Shown piece by piece: positions 3,201 through 32,749 of a stretch of DNA of 64,000 nt. The DNA comes from a virus (lineage: Duplodnaviria; Caudoviricetes). Each line of letters begins with the position of its first letter. The first letter of the stretch is position 1. The stretch lies in the IMG/VR virus record IMGVR_UViG_2684623194_000001, positions 3,803 through 67,802 of that record; one strand, given 5' to 3'. The notes below the pieces were generated by a model, which did no database searches, was not told the origin of the DNA, and saw nothing but the letters and a program-made list of their open reading frames with translations. The position numbers and the translations under genes are program-made.

Positions 3201-4506
3201 GACCCTGCTGGCTCGTGACGGCAGCGAACTTGCCCGATCCCGTCGAGCTTTCGATCGCGGAGGCCAGCTCGATATACCCGTCCACATCGGACGGGGTGCC
3301 TTTGATGTAGTTGTTGAACCCGTCAATGGAGGTTGGCGCTTGGCGAACCTGCTTTGAGGCGTCGGCGCTGCTCCAAAGGAAGCTGTTGTCTGCGTTGGTC
3401 CCCTCGTCTTTCGAGAACGAGCAGGGCAGAAGCAGCGTCTGGATCAGCCGCTTATTGCCCATCGTCTTAAGCTGGGCGTGAGCGGCCTTCGCGTCGCTCA
3501 CAACGGTTGTGGCATTGCCGTTCGTCGCCGAGTTCAGGCCCATTTCGCAGAGGATGACATCGTAGGGCCAGCCCTTGGCCTCCAGCAAGGCGCGACGCTT
3601 GTCAAAGCCCTTGATTTGGACGCCAACCGGCGTGGGCGAGAGCGTGAGGTCGAGAAGCCGCGTGCCGGGAACGCCCATGTTGCCGAACGGAAGACGCCCG
3701 CTCGGTAGGGTGTTGAGAGCTCGGTCGAAGAAGCTATTCCCCCCCAACTCTTCGGCCGTGACGCCGAAAGGCATGCCCTGAGTCCGATCACCCCAAAGGA
3801 TGCTATCGCCGACCTCAAGCACTGCCATGGACTTCGCAATCGCGTCCGCACCATAAGGTCGAGCGGTGGCGAGGATGGGCAGTCCGTCGTAGATCGCGAT
3901 GCCGGGGGTGTTGGTGAAGAACTCGCCCGTGTTGTTCCGCAGGTTCGCGACCTGGGACACGGTGCCACTGCTGTTCATCCCGTCGCCGCGATTGCTCGGC
4001 GTGCTGATGATGGAGCGTGGCAGGTAGACCGGGCCTTGCGACGGGCGATATTGGTTAAGCGCCAGCTCGTCGGCTACGCCGTAACGGATCACCGAGTTTG
4101 CCGGGATCACGACGGGTAACTCGTCCGTCCAAATGGCCGTGCCATCGGCAATCGTGAACGCCTCCTGACCGTTGTAGGTCAGGTAATATTTCACGTCGTT
4201 GATCTCAGCCACGACCTGCTTGATGGGCCAATCGTTGGTGAGAGGCTGCTCGTTCGCGTACCAAGCAGCCAGCGCCAGCGAAAGGCCGTAGGTTGCCCAA
4301 GGCGGTGACGTGTCCGCAATGTAGCGCATCTTGAACAGATCGCCTGAGACGACCTGCGCACGGTTGCTCTGGACCTGAAGACGCGAGGACGAGAGCAGCG
4401 GGCGCCCGATCTTCAGACCGCCTTTGTCTGCACCCCCCGCACCAAGCGAGTTCGTCGTCAGAGCCGAGAGCGCCAGAGATCCAAACTCAGGGCTGATCCT
4501 GCTCAT
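286..4506 (-). CDS. Large tailspike/virion-associated protein with two SGNH/GDSL hydrolase domains and a C-terminal lectin-like domain
   Basis: Two GDS blocks (VGDSIL, AGDSIT), each with downstream G, GxN and DxxH motifs (DGIH, DETH). Start at ATG 4506 is coupled to the upstream stop (ATGA). Confidence 0.7.
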   Translation of the reverse strand: MSRISPEFGSLALSALTTNSLGAGGADKGGLKIGRPLLSSSRLQVQSNRAQVVSGDLFKMRYIADTSPPWATYGLSLALAAWYANEQPLTNDWPIKQVVAEINDVKYYLTYNGQEAFTIADGTAIWTDELPVVIPANSVIRYGVADELALNQYRPSQGPVYLPRSIISTPSNRGDGMNSSGTVSQVANLRNNTGEFFTNTPGIAIYDGLPILATARPYGADAIAKSMAVLEVGDSILWGDRTQGMPFGVTAEELGGNSFFDRALNTLPSGRLPFGNMGVPGTRLLDLTLSPTPVGVQIKGFDKRRALLEAKGWPYDVILCEMGLNSATNGNATTVVSDAKAAHAQLKTMGNKRLIQTLLLPCSFSKDEGTNADNSFLWSSADASKQVRQAPTSIDGFNNYIKGTPSDVDGYIELASAIESSTGSGKFAAVTSQQGRLTADAASGQKVATVNFAVQPGDGIILNQGDSAQAEAKDIQAVTNNGNGTWTLTFRQNLARAHTANADTSVITAAGVYTFDGIHMVTQAARLLKDKVRVAESLLDPRRTPSVPVTLNNLFQTAQANSYSSYVDETDGTRLFRVARRTPGSTLSLAVAGNKLRIVDDGTDAYVVKGSGSLTLGESIAISITESHPTATNNNRVSTASVGVNAKGNWPAVLAAGYKNASMAGQVNNASRGAFGTRTRTYARKPMKLGRCSQKSLRIGFSTIRIESLTSAEELAGPVTPISACSVEITGAPTPIVRVLFGNSQTFTVPVGCDLYFSDELTPAMFGLTEFEDSLEINVNTVVDIPDGAVVYTCGQTLGTSYIYDPTVDTRAPADLVMIQGGITQPSGGATLPGPAPVMVVGLPVDGKTQVPSLFIAGDSITDRLSDGGGVGDNGGGYAKRAAFAAGIPYFSHSLGGRQVGHWNANNYFSRAYARFHTLTYSGLGTNDVGGGNTDAVIWKNLQALYAQMRSFGHTRVLQGTIPPRVSTGTRNASSENILTNYRCTDLTNQFPWYTSGVNGIGYELGGYKDQLNARIRNNAGVSLGPDAILDMAALCSDANSGPSKFKLRSFSSTLTADCAVNATTMTMADKPDVDETFVIEPGTANVETVPTQNFPFKVVSVSGSGPYVVTITGASPTVAHAAGSVIRATNANDETHPTTPIHKEAAALLRDQLLALYPAYAFTNAEASSYVARMTSPPSDKRRGLLDKLFGDLKTAGVLSVLDELHVVAAHSQQAANENLISTSYTLTSTAFPTWTKDRGYKGNGSNQFAATNFNPSTATGAKHQQDSAHMGVFTLVDGTTGEDFGSANGRSNVHSRASGHGGRVSQSTGGLGGSGSTASPHHVVANRTASNASELVVDGAQFATLATASTSLATGLDLLRNNNGYGDAQVAIVHTGGALTTTAQKTGLYNALKAYLQSVGAVAA

Positions 4507-5285: not shown

Positions 5286-6215
5286 CTATACCTTTGCACG
5301 AGATTGGGCGCTTGCGAATAATCGTTTGAACATCGGCCAGGAGTCAGACGCGCGCATTAGCGTCGTGGTGGCCGTGATCTGTTTCTGTAAATGTGGGTGC
5401 CCAACGTCCTCCGTGAGGAACTGGTGGTTGCGCCTCTTATTGTCAGGATTGCGGCTCTTTAGTTCGTCCAGCACGCCTTCCGGCAGAGCCTTGTAGATGA
5501 ACTCGTTTGTGAATTTGCCGACGACACCGGGGCGAGCGACGGATTTCGGATCATACCTCCACTTGTGGAGGCGGAAGATCTCTTCGTAGAAGCTGTCAGG
5601 GAACCGCTTGCTCCAAGGCAGTAGCTCTTTGGCGATGTACTTCTCTAAGATCGAATGCAGCTCACCGCGCTTGCGGACGGTTTCATAGCCAGTTGCCTCA
5701 TCGACCAAGGCTACGATGCCGACGCGCGCAAATCCGCGCATAAGGATCTCGCATTGCTGCGCGATAGGTTGCTGTTGCGCTTGGAGCTTGCCGGCTTGTC
5801 GAGCCGCTAGAACCGCCTCGCACAGCTCGACCAAGACCTCAGCTTCGTATCCGTAGGCCTTACCATTGGCAGGCGTTCGGAACAAAATCGGGTTCTGGAC
5901 TCTCTCCCTTAACTCATTGGAAACAAAGGAGGAAATGATCTTTCCCCCGATGAAAAGCTCAAGCCGACTCAGGCCCTTTTTCATGGACCCGCCTTGGGCA
6001 ATCGCCATTCCAGTTTGGACACCAGACGCACTCAGTACGCGCCTCTCATCGTCCAGAACATAGCACGGCAGGTCGATGTCTCCGACACGCAGTGGGTGAT
6101 CGCTCGAACCGTAGACCGCACGCGGCAACGCCTTCTCGCCGCTCCATCGTGCAATTGCTGCCTTCTTGGCATTCTCTGAGCGTTGGGCATCCTGATTGAT
6201 GAGGTCGTCTGACAT
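5286..6215 (-). CDS. P63C domain-containing protein
   Basis: Motifs LPCYVLDDERRVLS, GFARVGIVALVDEATGY, PWSKRFPDSFYEEIFRL, HQFLT; RBS GGAGG before ATG 6215. Confidence 0.85.
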   Translation of the reverse strand: MSDDLINQDAQRSENAKKAAIARWSGEKALPRAVYGSSDHPLRVGDIDLPCYVLDDERRVLSASGVQTGMAIAQGGSMKKGLSRLELFIGGKIISSFVSNELRERVQNPILFRTPANGKAYGYEAEVLVELCEAVLAARQAGKLQAQQQPIAQQCEILMRGFARVGIVALVDEATGYETVRKRGELHSILEKYIAKELLPWSKRFPDSFYEEIFRLHKWRYDPKSVARPGVVGKFTNEFIYKALPEGVLDELKSRNPDNKRRNHQFLTEDVGHPHLQKQITATTTLMRASDSWPMFKRLFASAQSRAKV

Positions 6216-6280
6216 GCTCGCATTCCTCCGTATGAATGCGAGCCAATTTAAGGCTAGCATTAAAGGCGTTCAATGCGAGC
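6216..6280. promoter_or_regulatory. Array of four AATGC(G/T)AGC repeats in alternating orientation upstream of the P63C gene
   Basis: Copies at 6216-6224 (rev), 6235-6243, 6253-6261 (rev) and 6272-6280, with 9-10 bp spacers. Confidence 0.6.
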
Positions 6281-22518: not shown

Positions 22519-24765
22519 TCAGTAGCCGCGCATCCGGCGCGGGAGCGGGGGCAAAGAGCCGTCCATCGGCATCTGCACTGCCTCAGGCAGACGCAGTTCC
22601 TTGATGGCCTTCGCGGCATTCAGATCAGCGGCGGAGCGCTCTTTCTCCGCCGTCGCGTGAAGCTTGTCGGCCTCGGCCGCAGCGACGATGCCTTCCCAGT
22701 CTCCATTCGGGCCGGGCGCGTCGGTGACATTCGCGCCGCCGTCTGCCTGGATTTTGCCGAGAGCCGACAGACGCTTGGTGAAGGCCTCGTACTGCTTCAC
22801 GCTGACGTTCGCCATGTCGGCGGTGTTGTCGCCTTCCAGCTTGCCGATATAGGCCAGCATCTGCTGGATCATGGTCTTGGACTGCTCCAACTGAGCGCCC
22901 ATGGACTGGATCTGCTGCTGGGCTTCGGGAGGCAGCCCGCCATTGAGCGGAGCCGGAAGCATCGCCTTCAGCCGCTCGGCGATCTCTTCCGCACCCTGCC
23001 AGTCGAGGTTCTTGACGAGGAGATCGCCGGCCAGTGGGATAATCTGCGGAAACGCCCGCATCATCTCCGTCATCTGGACGGCGGTTTCCTCGCGCTTCGT
23101 CGTGTAGCTCGGGCCGGTCGTGACGGTGAGGTCGTACTTGCCCTGAGCGAGATCGAACGTCTTGATCTGCGGCGCCTGAGACTGTCCGGGCATTACCTGA
23201 CCCACACCCTGCATCGGCTCTCCGTTTGGCCCCTGCTCCATCACCTGAGGCATTCCCTGGCCCATTTGGACGGGCACGGGGCGCATCAAAGGCACGTTCG
23301 ACGGAACCCCGTCCTCGCCCATGACGCGAATGATCCGCTCGGAATTGTAGACCTTCGGAATGAGGTCGATCAGGATGCGGCCGGTGTGGCGGATTGCCCG
23401 GCTCATGTTGTCTTGAAAGTGGAAGGTCGAGGTGTCGCTCTCGCGCTGGCGAGCGAGGATCGCGCGACCGCTCGTCTCGTTGCCCTGAGAGCCCATGCCA
23501 GCGTCGAAGATGCCGATGGTGGCCTTGATGTCGTCTGAGGCGTTCATCGCCTCCTGAAGGGCTCCTGCTGCCGCTCCCGTGTCGAGAGGCTGGCGCTGGG
23601 GCGGGCCGCCCGCGGTGATGTCGAACTCAAGATACGGATGGTTCTCGCTGTTCGCGGTCGCCCAGCGCCGGCCATCCGACTTGAATGCGCCCTTAGGTCC
23701 GATCCACGGCGTCTTAGGCGCGAGGGCCACGAGTTCCGTCGCCTTCGACCGCCAGTAGTTGAACATGCGCTGCGGGTCTTTGGCGTCTCGGATAAGAGAC
23801 CGCAGATGCCGCTTGCGCTTGTCGTCAATCACCTCGTCGCCGTAGACGGGAATGATCGGAATGTACCGGCCCGGCCATTTGTCCGTCTTGATGACGCCGC
23901 CGCCGTTCAGGATGTGCCGGCTGACCTTGTGAGACCGCGTCTCGCGCTCGGCCTTAACGGTGATGCCCTCAAGCTCGAAGAGAAGGAGCTGAGGGACCAT
24001 GTAGCCGTTGAACTCGACTTCCTTCTCGGCCTCATCCTTGTCGATGATGACGCCGTTTGAAAGCTGGAGAACCTTACGGCGAACCTCCTCGCGGCGCCAC
24101 CATTTGGCAATCATCACTTTGCCGTCGCTGGCCCAATTCGCATTGTCTCCAGACCAGTTCGTCGGGTCCTCGTCGGGGTACTGGTCCTTGAACTCGTCTT
24201 CCGTCAGCCATTCCGTCTCGAAGGCGCTGTTCCAGTTCGCGCTATCGGCATCCATGCAGGACGGGTCGCCGTAGATGGAGAACGGGTCCGACACGCGCTC
24301 AATCGACAGGTCGAGGTCGAACGTGTCGTCATAAGCGTAGTCGAGATCGACCTTCAGATAGCCCCAGCCCATCGAGACGGCGCATTCGGTGGCCGTATCG
24401 TAGGCCACGTCAGCGTTCGAGGTGTACTCGATGTTGCGGATCAGGCCGTTGATGATGTGCGCCGTGGCGACATCGGCCTTGTCGTCGGCCGGGTGAACCT
24501 TGATCGACGGCTTGTTCTGCCGCGCGTCGTTGACGACCTGGCGAATGAATGCCGGGAGGCGGTTGATGGTCAGCATCGGACGCCCGTCCGTCTGATACTG
24601 TTTTGCGATCTGGTCGGGCCACTGCTCACCCAAACGCGAGAACCGAAGATCCTCGGCCGCAAGAGCGCGGTTGTCGGCTTCCGCCTCGTGAGCGGCTTCA
24701 AACGCTTCCTTGGCTTCCGCTAGCAGGTCGTGCTTTTCGCCTTTGGAGGTGGTGTCTTCGGCCAT
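22519..24765 (-). CDS. P22-like portal protein
   Basis: GEQWP, LTINRLP, DPQRMFNYW, NETSGRAILARQ and GPSYTTKREE motifs; start MAEDT coupled to the terminase stop. Confidence 0.92.
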   Translation of the reverse strand: MAEDTTSKGEKHDLLAEAKEAFEAAHEAEADNRALAAEDLRFSRLGEQWPDQIAKQYQTDGRPMLTINRLPAFIRQVVNDARQNKPSIKVHPADDKADVATAHIINGLIRNIEYTSNADVAYDTATECAVSMGWGYLKVDLDYAYDDTFDLDLSIERVSDPFSIYGDPSCMDADSANWNSAFETEWLTEDEFKDQYPDEDPTNWSGDNANWASDGKVMIAKWWRREEVRRKVLQLSNGVIIDKDEAEKEVEFNGYMVPQLLLFELEGITVKAERETRSHKVSRHILNGGGVIKTDKWPGRYIPIIPVYGDEVIDDKRKRHLRSLIRDAKDPQRMFNYWRSKATELVALAPKTPWIGPKGAFKSDGRRWATANSENHPYLEFDITAGGPPQRQPLDTGAAAGALQEAMNASDDIKATIGIFDAGMGSQGNETSGRAILARQRESDTSTFHFQDNMSRAIRHTGRILIDLIPKVYNSERIIRVMGEDGVPSNVPLMRPVPVQMGQGMPQVMEQGPNGEPMQGVGQVMPGQSQAPQIKTFDLAQGKYDLTVTTGPSYTTKREETAVQMTEMMRAFPQIIPLAGDLLVKNLDWQGAEEIAERLKAMLPAPLNGGLPPEAQQQIQSMGAQLEQSKTMIQQMLAYIGKLEGDNTADMANVSVKQYEAFTKRLSALGKIQADGGANVTDAPGPNGDWEGIVAAAEADKLHATAEKERSAADLNAAKAIKELRLPEAVQMPMDGSLPPLPRRMRGY

Positions 24766-26321
24766 CAGCCCATCCATGAGTGAGCAAACGAAGCGCGATG
24801 ATCCTTCACCGGCTCCGCCCACTTCTGTTCGACAGGCTGCGCGAAGGTGAGAACAACCGCGTCCCATTCGTCGGGGGAGCGAACCCCTCGGGCTCGCATA
24901 TGCTCTTTGCTCTCGATCAGAAGGCGCTGGTTCGTATCGTAGTGATACCCAGGCGCGCAGGCATCGGCTTGCAAGCTGTCGTCGTCAGGGATGTCCACGC
25001 CAGCCGGCTCTTCAAGCCAATCTCGTGAACGCTCCCACATTTCCGCCCGCCGGTTCTTTGGGCCGGGCCGCTTGGAGCCATCGGCCATGAACTTGATCGG
25101 CTCCTGCGGCTCGCCTGCGAAGTTGATGGCGATGCAGATTTCCGAATACGGTTCGCCGTAGCTCTTCAGGATGTCGTAGGTGCCGGCACCCAAGCCGCCC
25201 ACGTCGATGAAAACCGCGTCGGGCTTGTCGGCGTCGATCACCTGCTTGATCCAGTTCGCACCGGCCACGATGTCCAGCTTGGTCTTGCTCTCGCGCTTGA
25301 TGATCTTCCGACCGCGACGCCATGCCAACGAGAACCGATCATCGCCAAAACGAGCCGGGTCAGCGCCAATGACGAGAGGCCCGACCCCTTCGCATTCCAG
25401 CTTTCGAGCCCGCAGAATGGCCTCCGGCTTGATGAAGCTGTCGTGACCGGTCATCTGGAAAGCTTCGTCCGCAGTCGCCGGGTACTCCTGTTTGAACAGC
25501 AGCGGGTCTTTCAGTTCCGCCATCTTGTTCCGCCGCCATGCCATCTGTTCGAGGTCGAGGCCGTGTGCGTACCTATAGGCTTCGTCCTCATCGGTCAGAA
25601 TGAAGCCCTCTGGTACGGCACGGCGATATTCCGGTTGCCAGAACCACGGCATGAAAACCGGGATGTAGTCTCCGATTGCCTGCTCGGCCTGCTGCCAGCG
25701 AGCGTGAAACTCGCCGCCAACGCCGTTCGCCGTGCTCTCTAGAATGATCTCCGTCCCGGGCAGATCAGGGATGGCCTGAACGACACCGGCGAAGTGAGTC
25801 TGCGCATTAGGCCAGAAGGCGACTTCCGACCCGTGGAAGAGCTGCACCGTCTGAGAACGGCCTACCGCCTTTGCGCCTGCCGTGCCGACCGCGTAGCCGC
25901 TTCCCAGCCGGTCGAAGTAGAGTTCCTTCGCGTTCGACGCCGAGGTGGAGGGCTTCACCAGATCGGGGCAGTGCTGGTGATAGCGATCCACCATGCCGAA
26001 GAGGTTGTTGGTCGCGTCCTGCTCGTGCGTGAGGATGAAGCACCTCTGGCCGCGCGAATGCGTCACCCGATGATAGAAGCGACCGCCAACATAGGTAGAG
26101 ACGCCTTGCTGCCGTCCCTTAAGGACGAGAGCGCGAACCTTGCCCGTCTCCGCCCTCTGCTGCTCTAGGCGCTCGTGGAGATATGTCTGCGCCCGGTTGA
26201 GAGTGAGCGGCACGATAGCGCCGGATTTCGATCGAATACGAAGGCACTTGCCGGCATAGTGGAGGAAATCGTCTCGAAGGCGAACCCGGATGGCCCGCTC
26301 TCGATCGCTCATCGTGCTCAT
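24765..26321 (-). CDS. terL: Terminase large subunit
   Basis: LKGRQQGVST Walker A, HGSEVAFW, ILESTANG, nuclease motifs GADPARFGDD and SPDEWDA. Confidence 0.93.
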   Translation of the reverse strand: MSTMSDRERAIRVRLRDDFLHYAGKCLRIRSKSGAIVPLTLNRAQTYLHERLEQQRAETGKVRALVLKGRQQGVSTYVGGRFYHRVTHSRGQRCFILTHEQDATNNLFGMVDRYHQHCPDLVKPSTSASNAKELYFDRLGSGYAVGTAGAKAVGRSQTVQLFHGSEVAFWPNAQTHFAGVVQAIPDLPGTEIILESTANGVGGEFHARWQQAEQAIGDYIPVFMPWFWQPEYRRAVPEGFILTDEDEAYRYAHGLDLEQMAWRRNKMAELKDPLLFKQEYPATADEAFQMTGHDSFIKPEAILRARKLECEGVGPLVIGADPARFGDDRFSLAWRRGRKIIKRESKTKLDIVAGANWIKQVIDADKPDAVFIDVGGLGAGTYDILKSYGEPYSEICIAINFAGEPQEPIKFMADGSKRPGPKNRRAEMWERSRDWLEEPAGVDIPDDDSLQADACAPGYHYDTNQRLLIESKEHMRARGVRSPDEWDAVVLTFAQPVEQKWAEPVKDHRASFAHSWMG

Positions 26322-27914: not shown

Positions 27915-29888
27915 TCACTTCTTACCCTTCCCGCCGCCGCTCGACTTACCGCCTGACGATGACGACGATTTGCTGCTGCTTGACGAGCGGCTAGAGGACG
28001 AGCCCCCAACCTTGCCGCCGTCCAAGCCCACGGCGCTGTCTCTCTCGCCAAAGCCTGCGAACGAACCCGAGCGGTCCGAATATCCACCTGCATTGCCGAA
28101 GCCGCCGCTGCGAGTGTCGTTGCGACCATAGCCGCCAGACGACGAGTTCATGCCACCGAGACCACCCAGACCGCCGAAGCCGATGGACGCGCCGCCGGCG
28201 GCAGGAGCCGCAGCTTGGGGGCCGGAAAGGCGCCCGCCGAGATATCCGCCCACGAGGCCGCCGATAGGACCAGCGACTGCGGACCCGATTAGACCACCTG
28301 CAATCCGCCCTGGCGTTAGACCAAGGCGAGACATGAGGCCGGGCTGTACCGTGGCAGAGGGCGCTGGGGTCGCGACAGCCTGTGGAGCCTGTTGCATTCC
28401 ACTCCATGGGTCGGAGACTGCCGGTCGAGCGGTAGGCATTGCGACCCGGGCCTGCGGTGCCTGTGAAGCCACCCGAGCCTGAGGCGCGTTGATCGTCGGC
28501 CGCGAACTAGGAACCGACACTTGAGCCGGGGCAGCGGTCATGGCCGCAGTCCTTGGCGCGGCAGTCGGGACGGCGACACGAGACGGAGCCGAGATCCCGC
28601 CGAGTGCGCCGGCAGGAAGCGAAGCCTCCACACTGCGAGGTGACCCAATTCTCCCGGCGAAGTTGGTAGGAGCGGCGATGCTCGGCGATGCCGTGACAGT
28701 CGGCGTCGTGATCGTTGGTGCCGCGACAGGTGCAGAGCGAACCGGTGCCTGCGAGACCATCGGGTTCACCGACGCCAGAGAGGCGTTGAGCCGTCCTTCT
28801 AGAGCACGGGGTGAACCGACCTGTCCTGCAAAGTTCGTGCGAGTCGGTACGGTCGGCGCCGTCATGGCAGGCGTGACAGCCTGCGCGGTTGTCCTAGGCG
28901 CTGCGGTTGGTGTCGTGGCCGCGGCAGCAGGCGAGATGCCGACTACGCTTCCGAGGCTGAACGGTGATGCTGGAGCCGTGCGAAGAGATGCAGCCGAACG
29001 GGTCGGCTCGAATGTACCCAGACGATCAGCGACGTTCTGCGCCTTCACACCTGACAGAGGTTGGCCGAGACCTGCCGTCACGCTCTGAGGTGCAACGCGA
29101 TCGGACAGTCTGCCTGCGGTCTGTGTTGGTCGGCTATCCGCATATCGGTCCAACATCGCTGCCGGCATCTGAGCCGGGAGGCTCGGGCCGAAGCGGGAGG
29201 CGTCTGGCGCAGCTCGTGACGCGCTCTGCATGACCTGCGTCGGACGAGCCGAGGGTGTCGGGACGCCAGTCGTCGTGTTCAGACCAATGCGCCCGCCTCG
29301 AATGGCTTGGGCTGATAGTGAGGATGGCAGCGATCCCGCCGCACTGACCGCAACAGAAGTCTGAGGCTGACCAGCGAGCGCACTAGAGAGTGTTGGCATG
29401 GGGCGCTGCGCGAACGAAGGCGTCGGGACACTGCGAGGCGCGGAGGCCATGGCGACATCAATTGCTGCCTGGGCGCCTGTTTTCTGCGTCGGCTGACGAT
29501 AACCAAGAGCCGTGCCAATGGAACGGTTCTGCGGGTCGCTATAATAGCGGTGTCCGCTGGTCGAGGTGACGTGCTGAAGACCGGACGGGAGGTTCTTCGC
29601 CGCCTTCGGTGTGGCGTAGAACGTACCGGTGTGGACCGGGCCTTTGGTCTGCACTTCGCGGATGGCCTGTTCTGCCAGATCACGATAGGCGCCGACACCC
29701 TTGGGCAAAGCTCGGCCGTAGGCGTTGAATTCTCGGCTGTTGGCGACGATTTGCTGCGGCGTCAGGCCCGTGAGTGCTGCTCGGTTGGCGATGGCGGAAT
29801 AGATCGCCTTCATATCGGCAAGGCGCTGAGCCTTAGTGCCGCTGGTCGCTTCACCCAGCACAACGTCAGTGACGGATCGAGCGACCAT
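27915..29888 (-). CDS. Cell-wall-hydrolase-like (SleB/Hydrolase_2) N-terminal domain + long Pro/Ala/Thr/Ser linker + glycine zipper
   Basis: VVLGEA...AIANRA...IVANSREFNAY...TFYATP...GHRYY motif; C-terminal IAGGLIGSAVAGPIGGLVGGYLGG. Confidence 0.65.
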   Translation of the reverse strand: MVARSVTDVVLGEATSGTKAQRLADMKAIYSAIANRAALTGLTPQQIVANSREFNAYGRALPKGVGAYRDLAEQAIREVQTKGPVHTGTFYATPKAAKNLPSGLQHVTSTSGHRYYSDPQNRSIGTALGYRQPTQKTGAQAAIDVAMASAPRSVPTPSFAQRPMPTLSSALAGQPQTSVAVSAAGSLPSSLSAQAIRGGRIGLNTTTGVPTPSARPTQVMQSASRAAPDASRFGPSLPAQMPAAMLDRYADSRPTQTAGRLSDRVAPQSVTAGLGQPLSGVKAQNVADRLGTFEPTRSAASLRTAPASPFSLGSVVGISPAAAATTPTAAPRTTAQAVTPAMTAPTVPTRTNFAGQVGSPRALEGRLNASLASVNPMVSQAPVRSAPVAAPTITTPTVTASPSIAAPTNFAGRIGSPRSVEASLPAGALGGISAPSRVAVPTAAPRTAAMTAAPAQVSVPSSRPTINAPQARVASQAPQARVAMPTARPAVSDPWSGMQQAPQAVATPAPSATVQPGLMSRLGLTPGRIAGGLIGSAVAGPIGGLVGGYLGGRLSGPQAAAPAAGGASIGFGGLGGLGGMNSSSGGYGRNDTRSGGFGNAGGYSDRSGSFAGFGERDSAVGLDGGKVGGSSSSRSSSSSKSSSSSGGKSSGGGKGKK

Positions 29889-29913
29889 CTATCCGTCCTT
29901 TCGTGCTGAACTT

Positions 29914-30197
29914 GGGAACGAGGTCGCCCCGCCTGCCGAAGCGGACGGGGCTGTGTGTGCGAGAGCGGCGTTGCAACGTTACCTCGCGGTCGGCAATACC
30001 AACCCCTTGGAACCGCTCTCACCTATGCGCCCTCTCGGGCATTCTGTCAGGACGGGCTACCTAACAATCTCCTGGCACTCCCTCACTGTCCATAGACCCA
30101 TCGGGCGCGCGCTGTTGTGCGCGCCCGACACCTCCGCCCTCCTTCGGGCCTTTCGGCTGCGGTGGAGTCTGGAGAAGGCGCTTTAGAACCTCGTCCC
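29914..30197 (-). ncRNA. Candidate large structured RNA (~285 nt), family unknown
   Basis: Closing helix GGGACGAGGU/ACCUCGUUCCC enclosing many hairpins with GAAA, GAGA, GCGA and UUCG loops on the minus strand; no credible ORF. Confidence 0.7.
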
Positions 30198-30238
30198 GTT
30201 TCTGGCCATCGGAGTTTGCCATGGAAAACCTATCGAAA

Positions 30239-30481
30239 TCAGAGGCGCGCGATTTGGCGAGTGCGATGGAATTCGAGAAAACTTAATGCTTCTCGCTCAG
30301 CTGATTGAGCCCTCACTCCTCCAGAGCAAGGATTGTTCAGCGCTCGATCCAATAGCTCGAAAGCTAGGGTTGGCGGTACAGATCCCGTTCCATCCTCCCC
30401 AATGAACCCAGACTCTTCCAAGGCCTCAATGAGGCGAGCCATCATGCCAGCAGTGATCTCTATATCCAGATCCTGACGCAT
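30239..30481 (-). CDS. Small hypothetical protein between the tRNA and the structured RNA
   Basis: 80 aa ORF with RBS AGGA. Confidence 0.45.
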   Translation of the reverse strand: MRQDLDIEITAGMMARLIEALEESGFIGEDGTGSVPPTLAFELLDRALNNPCSGGVRAQSAEREALSFLEFHRTRQIARL

Positions 30482-30505
30482 GAAATCTTTCCTACGCTTC
30501 GATCT

Positions 30506-30582
<77 letters not shown>

Positions 30583-30665
30583 GAACTGATGGATTTAACG
30601 GCGTTTCTCGCCTTGGGCGCACCACGCCATCTTAAAAACGAACTTGGAGCAAACGCGATCGCTAG

Positions 30666-31265
30666 TCAACCCCTCTTTTGTGACATGATGGTGCGGTGGA
30701 TGGCATTGCAGCCAATGCGCAGCGAGCCGACGAGAGCCGCCGACATCTTGTCCTCGCAGACAATGGTTTCGAGCGCCATGATGGACATCGCATCAGCATC
30801 GAGACACACGCGGCGGATCTCGGCATACCGTGCTCGCGATCGTGCGCAATGTTGCGCGTAGGCATCGCTTTCGTTATCCACCCCAATGTGACGGCCACCG
30901 CCCGATAGCTCGGAGCTAGAGCGAGGCGAAGGCGGTGCAGAGATGGCCGAGAGGTAAGCCTTGCGACGACGGGCGAACTCCATGCCCGCCTCATACACAG
31001 CTTCAGCCATCCCCTCTTTGCCTCGAACAGGACCAAGCTCGCCTTGGAGGTACATGCGGCCGAAGACAGACCCGGCCTTGTCGGACAGGGCGTCATTGGC
31101 TGCGATGCCGAAGAGGCGAACACGGGCGGCCGTGGCGACCGACACGATGTCCTTCTGCTTCTCGATAGCAGCGTGGTTCACGTCACCAGAGGGATAGCGG
31201 GGGACGCCCAGCTTCTTGTTGTGGCCGCCTCGACCGCGCTTCTTCTTTTCGCTGGCGGTTCTCAT
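30666..31265 (-). CDS. Putative late-gene regulator (Q-position protein)
   Basis: Last gene of the early-right operon before the tRNA and late genes; basic N-terminus. Confidence 0.5.
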   Translation of the reverse strand: MRTASEKKKRGRGGHNKKLGVPRYPSGDVNHAAIEKQKDIVSVATAARVRLFGIAANDALSDKAGSVFGRMYLQGELGPVRGKEGMAEAVYEAGMEFARRRKAYLSAISAPPSPRSSSELSGGGRHIGVDNESDAYAQHCARSRARYAEIRRVCLDADAMSIMALETIVCEDKMSAALVGSLRIGCNAIHRTIMSQKRG

Positions 31266-31620: not shown

Positions 31621-32084
31621 CAATCCACCTCTTCGCGGCCAAGAGGCAGCACCGGGATTGAGTACTTCTGTGCTTTCTCGGGCCAGACGCGGAGAGCATG
31701 AATGATTGTCGTATGGTCTCGATCGAACAAGCGCCCGATCTCTGACAAGCTCATCCATGAGCAACGACGAGCGACTTCGTAGATCGCCTCGTATCGAGCG
31801 ATGACGACTGACTGAGCGCGGCTTGGCCCCAGCAGAGCTTGCATGGGCATGTCTCTGCGCTTGGAGACCTCAGCCATGGTGCCGCGAGCGGAAACCCTCG
31901 CGCCAGTCTCCATGTCCTTAAGCGTCTCTTTCAGTTCGGCTATCTTCTCGTCTTTTGCGGCGAGCTGCTTGCGAAGCTGCGCAACGATCTGCGAGGCGTT
32001 GGCGGCGGCCTCAATCGCAGCCGCATCCAGCGCGCGTCTCTCTCGGATGCTGGCGTTAATTTTGGTGGCGGATGCGGAGATCAT
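31620..32084 (-). CDS. Protein with a DnaA C-terminal-like HTH domain
   Basis: SLSEIGRLFDRDHTTIIHA matches the DnaA domain IV signature. Confidence 0.8.
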   Translation of the reverse strand: MISASATKINASIRERRALDAAAIEAAANASQIVAQLRKQLAAKDEKIAELKETLKDMETGARVSARGTMAEVSKRRDMPMQALLGPSRAQSVVIARYEAIYEVARRCSWMSLSEIGRLFDRDHTTIIHALRVWPEKAQKYSIPVLPLGREEVD

Positions 32085-32749
32085 GCTCCCATGCTCCTAT
32101 GGTCGTTGGAAAAGATGAGGGGTGCGGCGGCAACCAGCTCGGCGCGGATCGCCTGAGCAACCTCGCGGTGCTCCTTCTGCGTTCCCTCCGCCTCGCGCTG
32201 GTCGAGGTAGTGCAACCAGGAGCGGAAGGTGCCGGACATGTAGAGGGTGGAAGGCGTCAGCCCCTCAGGCAGAACGGCGCGGGCGACTTCCTTGGCGATG
32301 CCATTCTGAATTGCCCACTCATAGGCTGCAGCACACGCATCCGCGACGTGCATCTGCCGTAGCTTCCACTCGTGATATACCTCGCTGTCATCATCAATAT
32401 CGACGCTTGCTTGCCGGTTCGTAGGGTGTTGCCCCCGTGCTTCCCGCAAGACCGGCTCGACGCTGGCCTCGGCATATCGCTGGCTGAACTCCTGGAAGGA
32501 GAACGAGCGGTGGCGAAGCATCTGACGGGCGGTATCGCGTGTTGTGATCACCTCCAGCGTGGCTGACGCCATCTCCGCAGGGGACCAGTGCTTGTTTCGG
32601 ATGAGGTAGGCCAGCAAACGCGCATCGGTCTCGCGGTTGGCCTGGTTGCCGGGGTTGGAGACGCGGGCGGCGTAGACGATGAACTCTTCGGCCGTTTTGC
32701 ATTCCGGCACGAGAGGCTGGGTGATGGCGACGAGACGGGCGGTGTTCAT
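32081..32749 (-). CDS. thyX: FAD-dependent thymidylate synthase
   Basis: RHRSFSFQEFSQRY ThyX motif, HWSP.E, ARAVLP, TQKEHR. Confidence 0.95.
   Translation of the reverse strand: MNTARLVAITQPLVPECKTAEEFIVYAARVSNPGNQANRETDARLLAYLIRNKHWSPAEMASATLEVITTRDTARQMLRHRSFSFQEFSQRYAEASVEPVLREARGQHPTNRQASVDIDDDSEVYHEWKLRQMHVADACAAAYEWAIQNGIAKEVARAVLPEGLTPSTLYMSGTFRSWLHYLDQREAEGTQKEHREVAQAIRAELVAAAPLIFSNDHRSMGA

Follow-up and report, generated by a model that had tools for sequence, protein, structure and literature searches.

Phage non-coding RNAs beyond tRNAs are poorly catalogued. The tRNA cluster of phage T4 includes two small stable RNAs, species 1 and species 2, which are co-transcribed with the phage tRNAs and whose function is unknown. 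In phage lambda, 6S RNA is the short leader RNA of the late promoter, and in phage HK022 the put element, a cis-acting RNA of two stem-loops near the operon start, allows RNA polymerase to pass terminators without a phage protein. GOLLD and ROOL are prophage-associated RNAs, often found near tRNAs, in bacterial groups other than the one considered here. We know of no palindromic element in lambda 6S RNA or in StxS of the Stx phages. StxS is described as a leader-type small RNA that acts in trans (PMC7547250), and GOLLD and ROOL are reported to measure 550-830 nt (PMC12990946) and to form homo-oligomeric complexes (PMC12286853). Natural RNA homodimers are characterized as few; the group IIC intron HYER1 homodimerizes via palindromic pairing, and its relatives without the palindrome are monomeric (PMC12990946). 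Here we analyzed a 284-nt stretch (30197-29914, minus strand) of a 64,000-nt window taken from the IMG/VR record IMGVR_UViG_2684623194_000001, which a preliminary description had presented as one multi-branched RNA of ~285 nt (all coordinates below are window positions). The conserved entity proved to be a three-way junction of ~65 nt, hereafter the core, which recurs in 18 distinct loci. The stretch around it is a composite of unrelated pieces. With moderate confidence, we read the core as a stand-alone, processed small phage RNA, probably paired as a homodimer. Judged by its sequence, the core is a candidate for a new motif among the small RNAs of alphaproteobacterial phages, marked by an unusual dimer signature.

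Each of the described systems resembles the core only in part. Like T4 species 1 and 2, it is a phage-encoded small structured RNA found among tRNA genes; unlike them, it belongs to another host group and also occurs without nearby tRNAs, and a relation in sequence or fold is not expected. It shares with lambda 6S RNA and StxS a position between a late regulator gene and the late genes, and those RNAs end at a terminator; as described, however, they arise as by-products of Q antitermination and act through base pairing, and they are not a covarying three-way junction with invariant junctions. The put element comprises two stem-loops rather than a three-way junction, and a terminator lies close to the core in only 3 of the 18 loci. 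GOLLD and ROOL, at the reported 550-830 nt, dwarf the 65 nt of the core, their Rfam models do not match here, and they use many kissing-loop contacts where the core has a single, predicted palindromic duplex. HYER1 is reported as a 637-nt ribozyme of a known intron class and is unrelated in sequence and context. We place the core as a candidate within a kind already known, the structured small RNAs that phages carry near tRNAs or late leaders, its dimer signature being the unusual feature. To this kind it adds a compact, covarying and tractable motif with a putative dimerization signal, found in temperate phages whose alphaproteobacterial hosts are soil and plant-associated.

The core occupies 29958-30022 on the minus strand and scores 79.6 bits against R1, our covariance model of the motif. 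P1 (8 bp) pairs 30020-30013 with 29968-29961, and P2 (7 bp, closed by a variable loop) pairs 30004-29998 with 29994-29988. The third element, P3, is a self-complementary 10-mer, CGUUGCAACG (29978-29969), which abuts the 3' strand of P1. The junction sequences J12 (UUCCAAGG) and J23 (GCGAGGUAA) are invariant, 22 positions of the core are invariant altogether, and the RNAalifold consensus adds CC/GG and G-C pairs that extend P2. A mini-hairpin, CC-GCGA-GG, had been proposed in this domain; covariation contradicts it: the CC belongs to P2, on the 3' strand, and the RNAalifold consensus joins the GG to the CC of J12. The setting of P3 against the P1 3' strand merely recalls the acceptor/T-arm stack of a tRNA, and neither ARAGORN nor the Rfam tRNA model called a tRNA or tRNA-like gene at 29958-30022.

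The 18 loci lie in prophages of the same bacterial family, in viral contigs and in metagenome contigs, and score 55.6-84.5 bits with R1. At the DNA level, a search of 400 other family genomes returned short matches to 30016-29956 in L004, L005 and L013, with apparent compensatory changes. Exact-pattern scans of viral contigs added L040, L048, L058, L060, L062, L063, L065, L070 and L074, a pattern scan of metagenomes added L080, L084, L086 and L087, and R1 itself added L091. The first pattern matched 23 viral contigs, 3 of them true and 20 by chance in coding sequence; the second matched 8 loci, 5 of them new (3 member-like, 2 not), and the third 17, with 14 new (3 member-like, 11 not). Duplicates were counted once (L082 and L089 with L040, L088 with L048, L083 with L065, L085 with L080, and L090 with L004). 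We excluded as doubtful L081 (24.2 bits, no palindrome) and L075, L059 and L064 (18-20 bits), as well as L079, a match in the window's own genome (20.5 bits, E 0.2), where R1 finds the core as a single copy.

Covariation, which the preliminary description had proposed as a check, supported the core strongly. In an alignment of 13 sequences (A1), 93.6% of the cells were paired and 12 of the 18 pairs had changed on both sides; none of 500 shuffles did as well, and slid alignments had 32-48% of cells paired. For all 18 sequences (A3), an alignment fitted to the model and so favoring the modeled pairs, though the central pairs of P3 lie outside the model, 94.7% of the cells were paired and 15 of 23 pairs had changed on both sides. 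None of 500 shuffles reached A3 on four measures, one in 500 reached its count of pairs changed on both sides, and slid alignments had 29-50% of cells paired. Exchanges in P2 between U-G and C-G, and between U-A and U-G, indicate that the RNA is read from the minus strand. Members are 64-69 nt long and their P2 loops differ by lengths that are not multiples of three, so that they share no reading frame; on these loop lengths, we rejected a coding potential for the core.

An all-versus-all comparison of 600-nt flanks among the 18 loci revealed that the core alone is common to all of them. Other modules are common to subsets and appear in differing order; L004 and L005 share more blocks, again with their order changed. 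Since the constant element is the RNA itself, and not a neighboring gene or platform, a self-contained RNA is favored. The space between regulatory and packaging genes in these phages reads as a mosaic, whose small RNA modules, tRNAs and tRNA-like genes recombine as protein-coding morons do.

P3 remained self-complementary across the 18 loci while its sequence changed. The form CGUUGCAACG was present in 9 loci and CGCUGCAGCG in 4, and single loci carried GGCUGCAGCG (L065), GGCUGCGGCG (L070), CUUGAUCAAG (L074), CUGUUAACAG (L084) and CUGAUAUCAG (L091); these five loci all came from searches that left P3 unconstrained. The four central bases, which would form the "loop" of a hairpin, are pairable in 18 of 18 loci (UGCA, GAUC, UUAA, AUAU and one UGCG), in L070 through a U-G pair. 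Both central pairs of A3, 52-55 and 53-54, had changed on both sides, with tallies of U-A 15, A-U 1, G-C 1 and U-G 1 for one and of G-C 15, U-A 2 and A-U 1 for the other. Because pairing across the whole "loop" is impossible within a hairpin, we infer that two molecules pair, forming a homodimer; palindromic pairing is reported as a documented route to RNA homodimers (PMC12990946). ViennaRNA predictions leave P3 unpaired in the monomer and give the 10-mer 0.0 kcal/mol as a hairpin and -14.5 kcal/mol as a duplex. The predicted core dimer, at -81.3 kcal/mol, is 15.1 kcal/mol better than two monomers of -33.1 kcal/mol each, values that are consistent with a dimer and no more, since any palindrome would score so. 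With P3 set directly against P1, dimerization would yield a continuous stacked helix, P1-P3:P3'-P1', of ~26 bp, from which two P2 arms would project.

A 10-bp palindrome could also serve as DNA, bound by a dimeric protein as an operator or packaging site, with the rest of the motif hitch-hiking. Such a palindrome reads the same on both strands, and terminase genes are near in several loci. We nevertheless consider a DNA element very unlikely, as the sequence changes while its symmetry is kept, in L070 only through a U-G pair, and in the helices around it the covariation includes G-U pairs on one strand alone.

The 5' 135 nt of the claimed RNA are a protein-coding cassette. The region had been said to hold no credible open reading frame (ORF); in fact, positions 30061-30222 of the minus strand, which include the 5' half of the claimed RNA, encode a small ORF of 53 aa (MANSDGQKRDEVLKRLLQTPPQPK..., from the ORF list) with relatives elsewhere. 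It carries RDEVLKRLLQTPPQPK and belongs to a recurrent small-protein family with the motif GDEVLRRLLKTPPxPK. Such small ORFs are seldom called by annotation (we found 2 protein matches in a set of 5.8 billion proteins), and we therefore searched genomes in six frames, recovering relatives at E<=0.01 in 38 of 400 genomes of the same bacterial family. Thirty of these loci were fetched: in 21, an open frame with the motif (KDKDQEKGDEVLRRLLKTPPDPK followed by a basic tail) lay near the match, and in 9 none was seen with the pattern used. Nineteen of the 21 frames start at M and are 41-106 aa long, most of the family falling within 41-81 aa. The family has no match in Pfam or PHROG. The small ORF has relatives without the RNA, and GGGACGAGGU, the 5' arm of the proposed closing helix, spells its R-D-E-V codons, a part of the peptide motif that is kept where no pairing partner exists.

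The end of the small ORF overlaps the remnant of a second gene. On the plus strand, 30051-30095 encode DGLPNNLLALPHCP* (frame 0 translation), antisense to the ORF end and comprising the last 14 codons and the stop of a DUF3892-type gene. The rest of that gene is gone, and the window holds no full DUF3892 (PF13031) domain. The last 50 nt of the small ORF are 84-88% identical to four loci (L006, L008, L011 and L012), where the corresponding stretch is the antisense of the C-terminus of a convergent gene of 90-91 aa ending in ...ESDG[LIV]EPNNLLALP.C.*; the full-length protein of L008 matches Pfam DUF3892 at 5.8e-12. In these four loci, the small ORF and the DUF3892 gene stand tail-to-tail, the ORF overlapping the DUF3892 3' end. 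We also observed, in the poorly conserved middle of the ORF, a GC-rich and perfect 10-bp inverted repeat, UCGGGCGCGC-ACAACA-GCGCGCCCGA (30103-30128, minus strand; 30128-30119 with 30112-30103), which is absent from the homologous small-ORF loci seen.

The 3' part of the stretch has a separate history. The viral contig L058 shares 29926-30056 with the window at 92% identity and nothing of the small ORF, and this is the only part of the 284-nt region that matches it, so that the region is not kept as a unit. The 5' flank of the core common to both (30023-30056, minus strand) holds the GCCC-GAGA-GGGC hairpin (30040-30029) and begins with CCCGUCCUGACAG (30056-30044, minus strand), the orphan 3' strand of a further structure that we term module 2. 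Module 2 is complete in L058, L003, L004, L005 and L084; the window keeps its 3' strand only. In L058, CCCGUCCUGA forms the 3' strand of the helix and the 5' strand, AUCAGGACGG, lies 60 nt upstream. The UGUUAGG/CCUGACA hairpin read in the window is not kept there, as CCUGAC has another upstream partner. The closing helix of module 2 shows compensatory changes (CAGAACGG/CCGUUCUG in L004, CGAGAGACGG/CCGUCUCUCG in L084, CAGGAC/GUCCUG in L003, a G-U pair in L005, and also CAGGACGG/CCGUCCUG), and its general shape is AUC-helix-ACGGCGG ... CCGU-helix (AUCAGGACGGCGG...CCGUCCUGA). We located it at L058:3528-3596, L003:3678-3795, L005:1902-2070 and L084:1231-1320, and on the minus strand of L004. It lies upstream of the core in L058, downstream in L004, L005 and L084, and occurs without the core in L003.

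The two histories meet at CCCGUCCUGAC, a microhomology between the 3' strand of module 2 and the ...ESDG codons of DUF3892 genes, which points to an illegitimate recombination that inserted the cassette into the RNA region. In this scenario, a mobile cassette of the small-protein gene and a convergent DUF3892 stub would have recombined into a non-coding RNA region of the phage and cut away the 5' part of module 2. A contig from another organism's sequencing run is identical to 30013-30411 and diverges inside the core, 10 nt in, which could mark another junction formed by this cassette.

At its 3' end, the stretch carries a terminator-like GC-rich hairpin, GCCCCGUCCGC-UUCG-GCAGGCGGGGC (29926-29951, minus strand). 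In the window, this hairpin (29951-29926) is followed by GACCUCGUUCCC, with no U-tract, and no terminator was called, in keeping with the lack of a U-tract noted from the sequence earlier. The homologous hairpin of L058 is followed by TTTTCTTT and called as a terminator, and a similar one in L002 precedes the T-tract TTTCTCGTTT. By this comparison, the hairpin in the window is a degenerate terminator that has lost its U-tract. The 3' arm of the proposed closing helix, ACCUCGUUCCC (29914-29924, minus strand), lies where the relatives have the U-tract.

Read as a whole, the stretch does fold exceptionally well. All the helices that had been described are readable on the minus strand: the closing helix of GGGACGAGGU (30197-30188) with ACCUCGUUCCC (29924-29914), the perfect 10-bp inverted repeat, the hairpins GCC-GAAA-GGC, UGUUAGG/CCUGACA and GCCC-GAGA-GGGC, GAGAGCGG/CCGCUCUC, and the terminal GCCCCG...CGGGGC hairpin. 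The comparison with dinucleotide shuffles, also proposed at the outset, gave -148.4 kcal/mol for the minus strand (z -5.77, 0 of 200 shuffles as stable), and z -3.65 for the plus strand. The stretch was the most stable of 1276 native 284-nt windows (step 100, both strands, across the 64 kb), both in raw energy and after regression on G+C (residual -32.3, z -3.64), with the qualification that its ends, unlike those of the control windows, had been picked to pair. Folded apart, the pieces are less striking (z -2.2 for the ORF part, -2.5 for the 131-nt module and -4.3 for the 65-nt core). Two near-perfect 10-bp long-range helices are predicted to join the ORF to the RNA part or its tail: GGGACGAGGU with ACCUCGUUCCC (30188-30197 with 29914-29924) and GCGCCUUCUC with GAGAGGGCGC (approximately 30172-30181 with 30026-30035). 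These complementarities, which put the stretch first among the 1276 windows, could be due to chance or could form a translation-coupled structure.

On such folding evidence, the stretch could be a single ~285-nt RNA, as first described, or a translation-coupled switch whose long-range helices to the late leader are opened by ribosomes translating the small ORF. We consider this improbable. A search of 60 relatives returned one 36-nt match, to the terminal hairpin only, none of 21 genomes of the same genus matched, and among 400 other genomes of the family, 31 matched, all partially; as no second genome carries the full arrangement, we think one large RNA unlikely. The peptide motif encoded by the 5' arms is kept even where no pairing partner exists, and the closing helix joins the RDEV codons on one side to what is a terminator tail in relatives on the other. 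The large multi-branched RNA was thus not borne out; what is conserved is the three-way junction. The case carries a caution for structure scans, as a coding cassette joined to an RNA module can give an exceptional fold (z about -6, best of 1276 windows).

The sequence comparisons establish that the stretch is composite, that the core fold covaries and is read from the minus strand, that P3 is palindromic and that no Rfam family matches; the processing, dimerization and action in trans of our preferred reading, a stand-alone small RNA, are proposals built on these. The intact ~65-nt motif would be the functional RNA, a self-contained, gene-like module in the non-coding islands of this bacterial family's phages, where tRNAs and further small RNA modules also reside. 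It would be transcribed with its late-strand neighbors and trimmed to a stable small RNA, two copies would join through P3, and the dimer may act in trans by binding a host or phage protein. A bolder proposal, which we offer tentatively and regard as rather less likely, is that the symmetric, obligate homodimer represents a new class of phage small RNA, a dsRNA-like particle, produced along with phage tRNAs, that could be a decoy or scaffold for a host RNA-binding enzyme or defense protein, and one of several interchangeable modules in an unrecognized RNA island of alphaproteobacterial phages.

Several observations weigh against the preferred reading. The dimer is deduced from four distinct central tetramers among 18 related sequences, and the energy model behind it would favor any 10-nt palindrome. 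The motif family is small and narrow: under strict filters, the core was detected in 2 of 150 further genomes from the bacterial family, and in 0 of 150 genomes each of an order sample and a class sample, in which few candidates were scored. No RNA sequencing run containing the stretch was found, and contigs from three runs gave only fragments and heavy tRNA coverage. The full 284 nt outfold every other window, and a composite origin leaves the long-range helices as an unexplained coincidence. Finally, in several loci the position of the core suits a cis-acting late leader, the core following NusG-like genes (L074, L086 and L091), preceding terS and terL (L062 and L065), or lying within 20 nt of a terminator (L058, where the downstream gene is terS-like by eye only, L013 and L080).

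This positional evidence makes cis late antitermination the main rival, in which the core would act as a late leader that either modifies RNA polymerase in the manner of put or serves as the target of an antiterminator (N/nut- or LoaP-like), granting read-through into the packaging genes. The window is a P22-like prophage region in which tRNA-Met, ThyX (32081-32749), terminase and portal are all encoded on the minus strand. A phage tRNA-Met (CAU; 30506-30582, minus strand, called by ARAGORN and Rfam) lies 484 nt upstream of the core on the same strand, preceded by a 199-aa gene of the family phrog_15385 (30666-31265, minus strand). Downstream, the first coding sequence (CDS; 657 aa, 27915-29888, minus strand) is followed by the large terminase (24765-26321, minus strand) and a P22-type portal (22519-24867, minus strand). 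The spacing given in the preliminary description is right, with 25 nt from the stretch to the first late CDS and ~309 nt to the tRNA, and the structured RNA it described on the late strand near a tRNA is borne out, lying between a candidate late regulator and the packaging genes. A similar placement before terS and terL recurs in L062 and L065, and by eye in L058. The phrog_15385 proteins of the window and of L062 (7725-8231, minus strand) sit at the late-regulator position, just upstream of the tRNA/RNA region. In L074, L086 and L091, the gene directly upstream on the same strand belongs to phrog_25909, "transcription antiterminator", with a Pfam NusG match (L074:2858-3487, L091:1771-2433 and L086:519-1205, all minus strand). 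In L063, a TTGACA-17-CTATAA promoter read by eye ends 6 nt before P1; the promoter scan did not call it.

About half of the contexts suit this rival, which we nonetheless hold to be doubtful. Three unrelated families, phrog_25909, phrog_15385 (window and L062) and phrog_6836 (L065 and L005), occupy the upstream position beside the same RNA, and a canonical terminator, as called by script, lies within 20 nt in 3 of 18 loci only, the window having none. No same-strand gene follows the core in L013 and L048, where it ends the transcription unit: in L013, it comes after a tRNA-Met and ends, by eye, at a terminator facing a convergent gene, and in L048, it lies at the end of an operon. In L070, it lies 3 nt after a tRNA-Gly and 28 nt before a tRNA-Met, and in L040, between two helix-turn-helix genes; overall, ARAGORN called a same-strand tRNA within 500 nt in 6 of 18 loci. 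A search with the 657-aa neighbor protein found one related prophage (L003, the same as L033) and two partial contigs only, and this prophage, from Aureimonas pseudogalii, has the same first late gene and module 2 but, in the R1 scan, no core. The palindromic P3 would also be of no obvious use co-transcriptionally. By eye, we observed in L003 a KOW-like ORF (~3240-3449) preceding the non-coding region.

Two further rivals ascribe to the core a role in its own transcript. A ligand-sensing, riboswitch-like aptamer that controls a downstream hairpin or ribosome-binding site would account for the compact junction with its 22 invariant positions, and for the loci with a terminator behind the core or, as in L063, a ribosome-binding site 25 nt downstream. 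The downstream genes are, however, unrelated or absent, the flanks share nothing beyond the core and no conserved platform, and no alternative pairing of the P1 3' strand is kept across the loci, which makes a riboswitch quite improbable. A self-cleaving or processing element that frees neighboring tRNAs or RNA modules would fit the loci where the core abuts a tRNA 3' end (L070) or a tRNA-like 3' end (L080), and the CCAAA(G/U)-like string that occurs 2-8 nt before P1 in ~7 of the 18 loci. As no Rfam ribozyme family matches, and the junction sequences of the core resemble no ribozyme core known to us, we regard this, too, as highly improbable.

Database searches returned no described family for the stand-alone RNA that we favor. 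The Rfam search that had been proposed as a check (cmscan) found no Rfam 15 family at its gathering score in the stretch, and only 3 tRNAs in the whole window; the families compared include GOLLD, ROOL, HEARO, tmRNA, RNase P, introns, riboswitches and ribozymes. At E<=10, the best match within 29600-30600, the tRNA aside, scored 17.3 bits against gathering scores of 50-66, and at E<=1, L003, L004, L005 and L013 yielded only a tRNA and chance matches off the motif. We separately rejected HDV-like, hammerhead, twister and hairpin ribozyme folds by their strand order and junction sequences, and by the lack of an Rfam match. A blastn search of 50,697 GenBank phage records with 411 nt gave no match, and the promoter and terminator scan called nothing in the window or in L063. 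In the literature, we found no description of the motif, although supplementary motif lists might hold one; the main text of a survey of 50 genomes has no mention of phage, terminase, "Rhizob", "palindrom" or dimer (PMC11109978).

The non-coding islands that hold the core contain additional recurring sequences. A third shared string, GCCCGAAUGGGCAACGA..UUGGG (GCCCGAUGGGCACGAG in L087), was read by eye ~115-150 nt downstream of the core in L074, ~90-110 nt upstream of it in L084 and ~10-25 nt upstream of P1 in L087, which suggests another small module. We further observed tRNA-like sequences with an acceptor stem, a T-arm (GUUCGAUUC or GGUUCAAAUCC) and a CCA end, none of them called by ARAGORN, directly upstream of the core in L080 (~6160-6235, minus strand) and ~10-120 nt downstream of it in L087. 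The D region is odd in one of these, and the other contains a long insertion.

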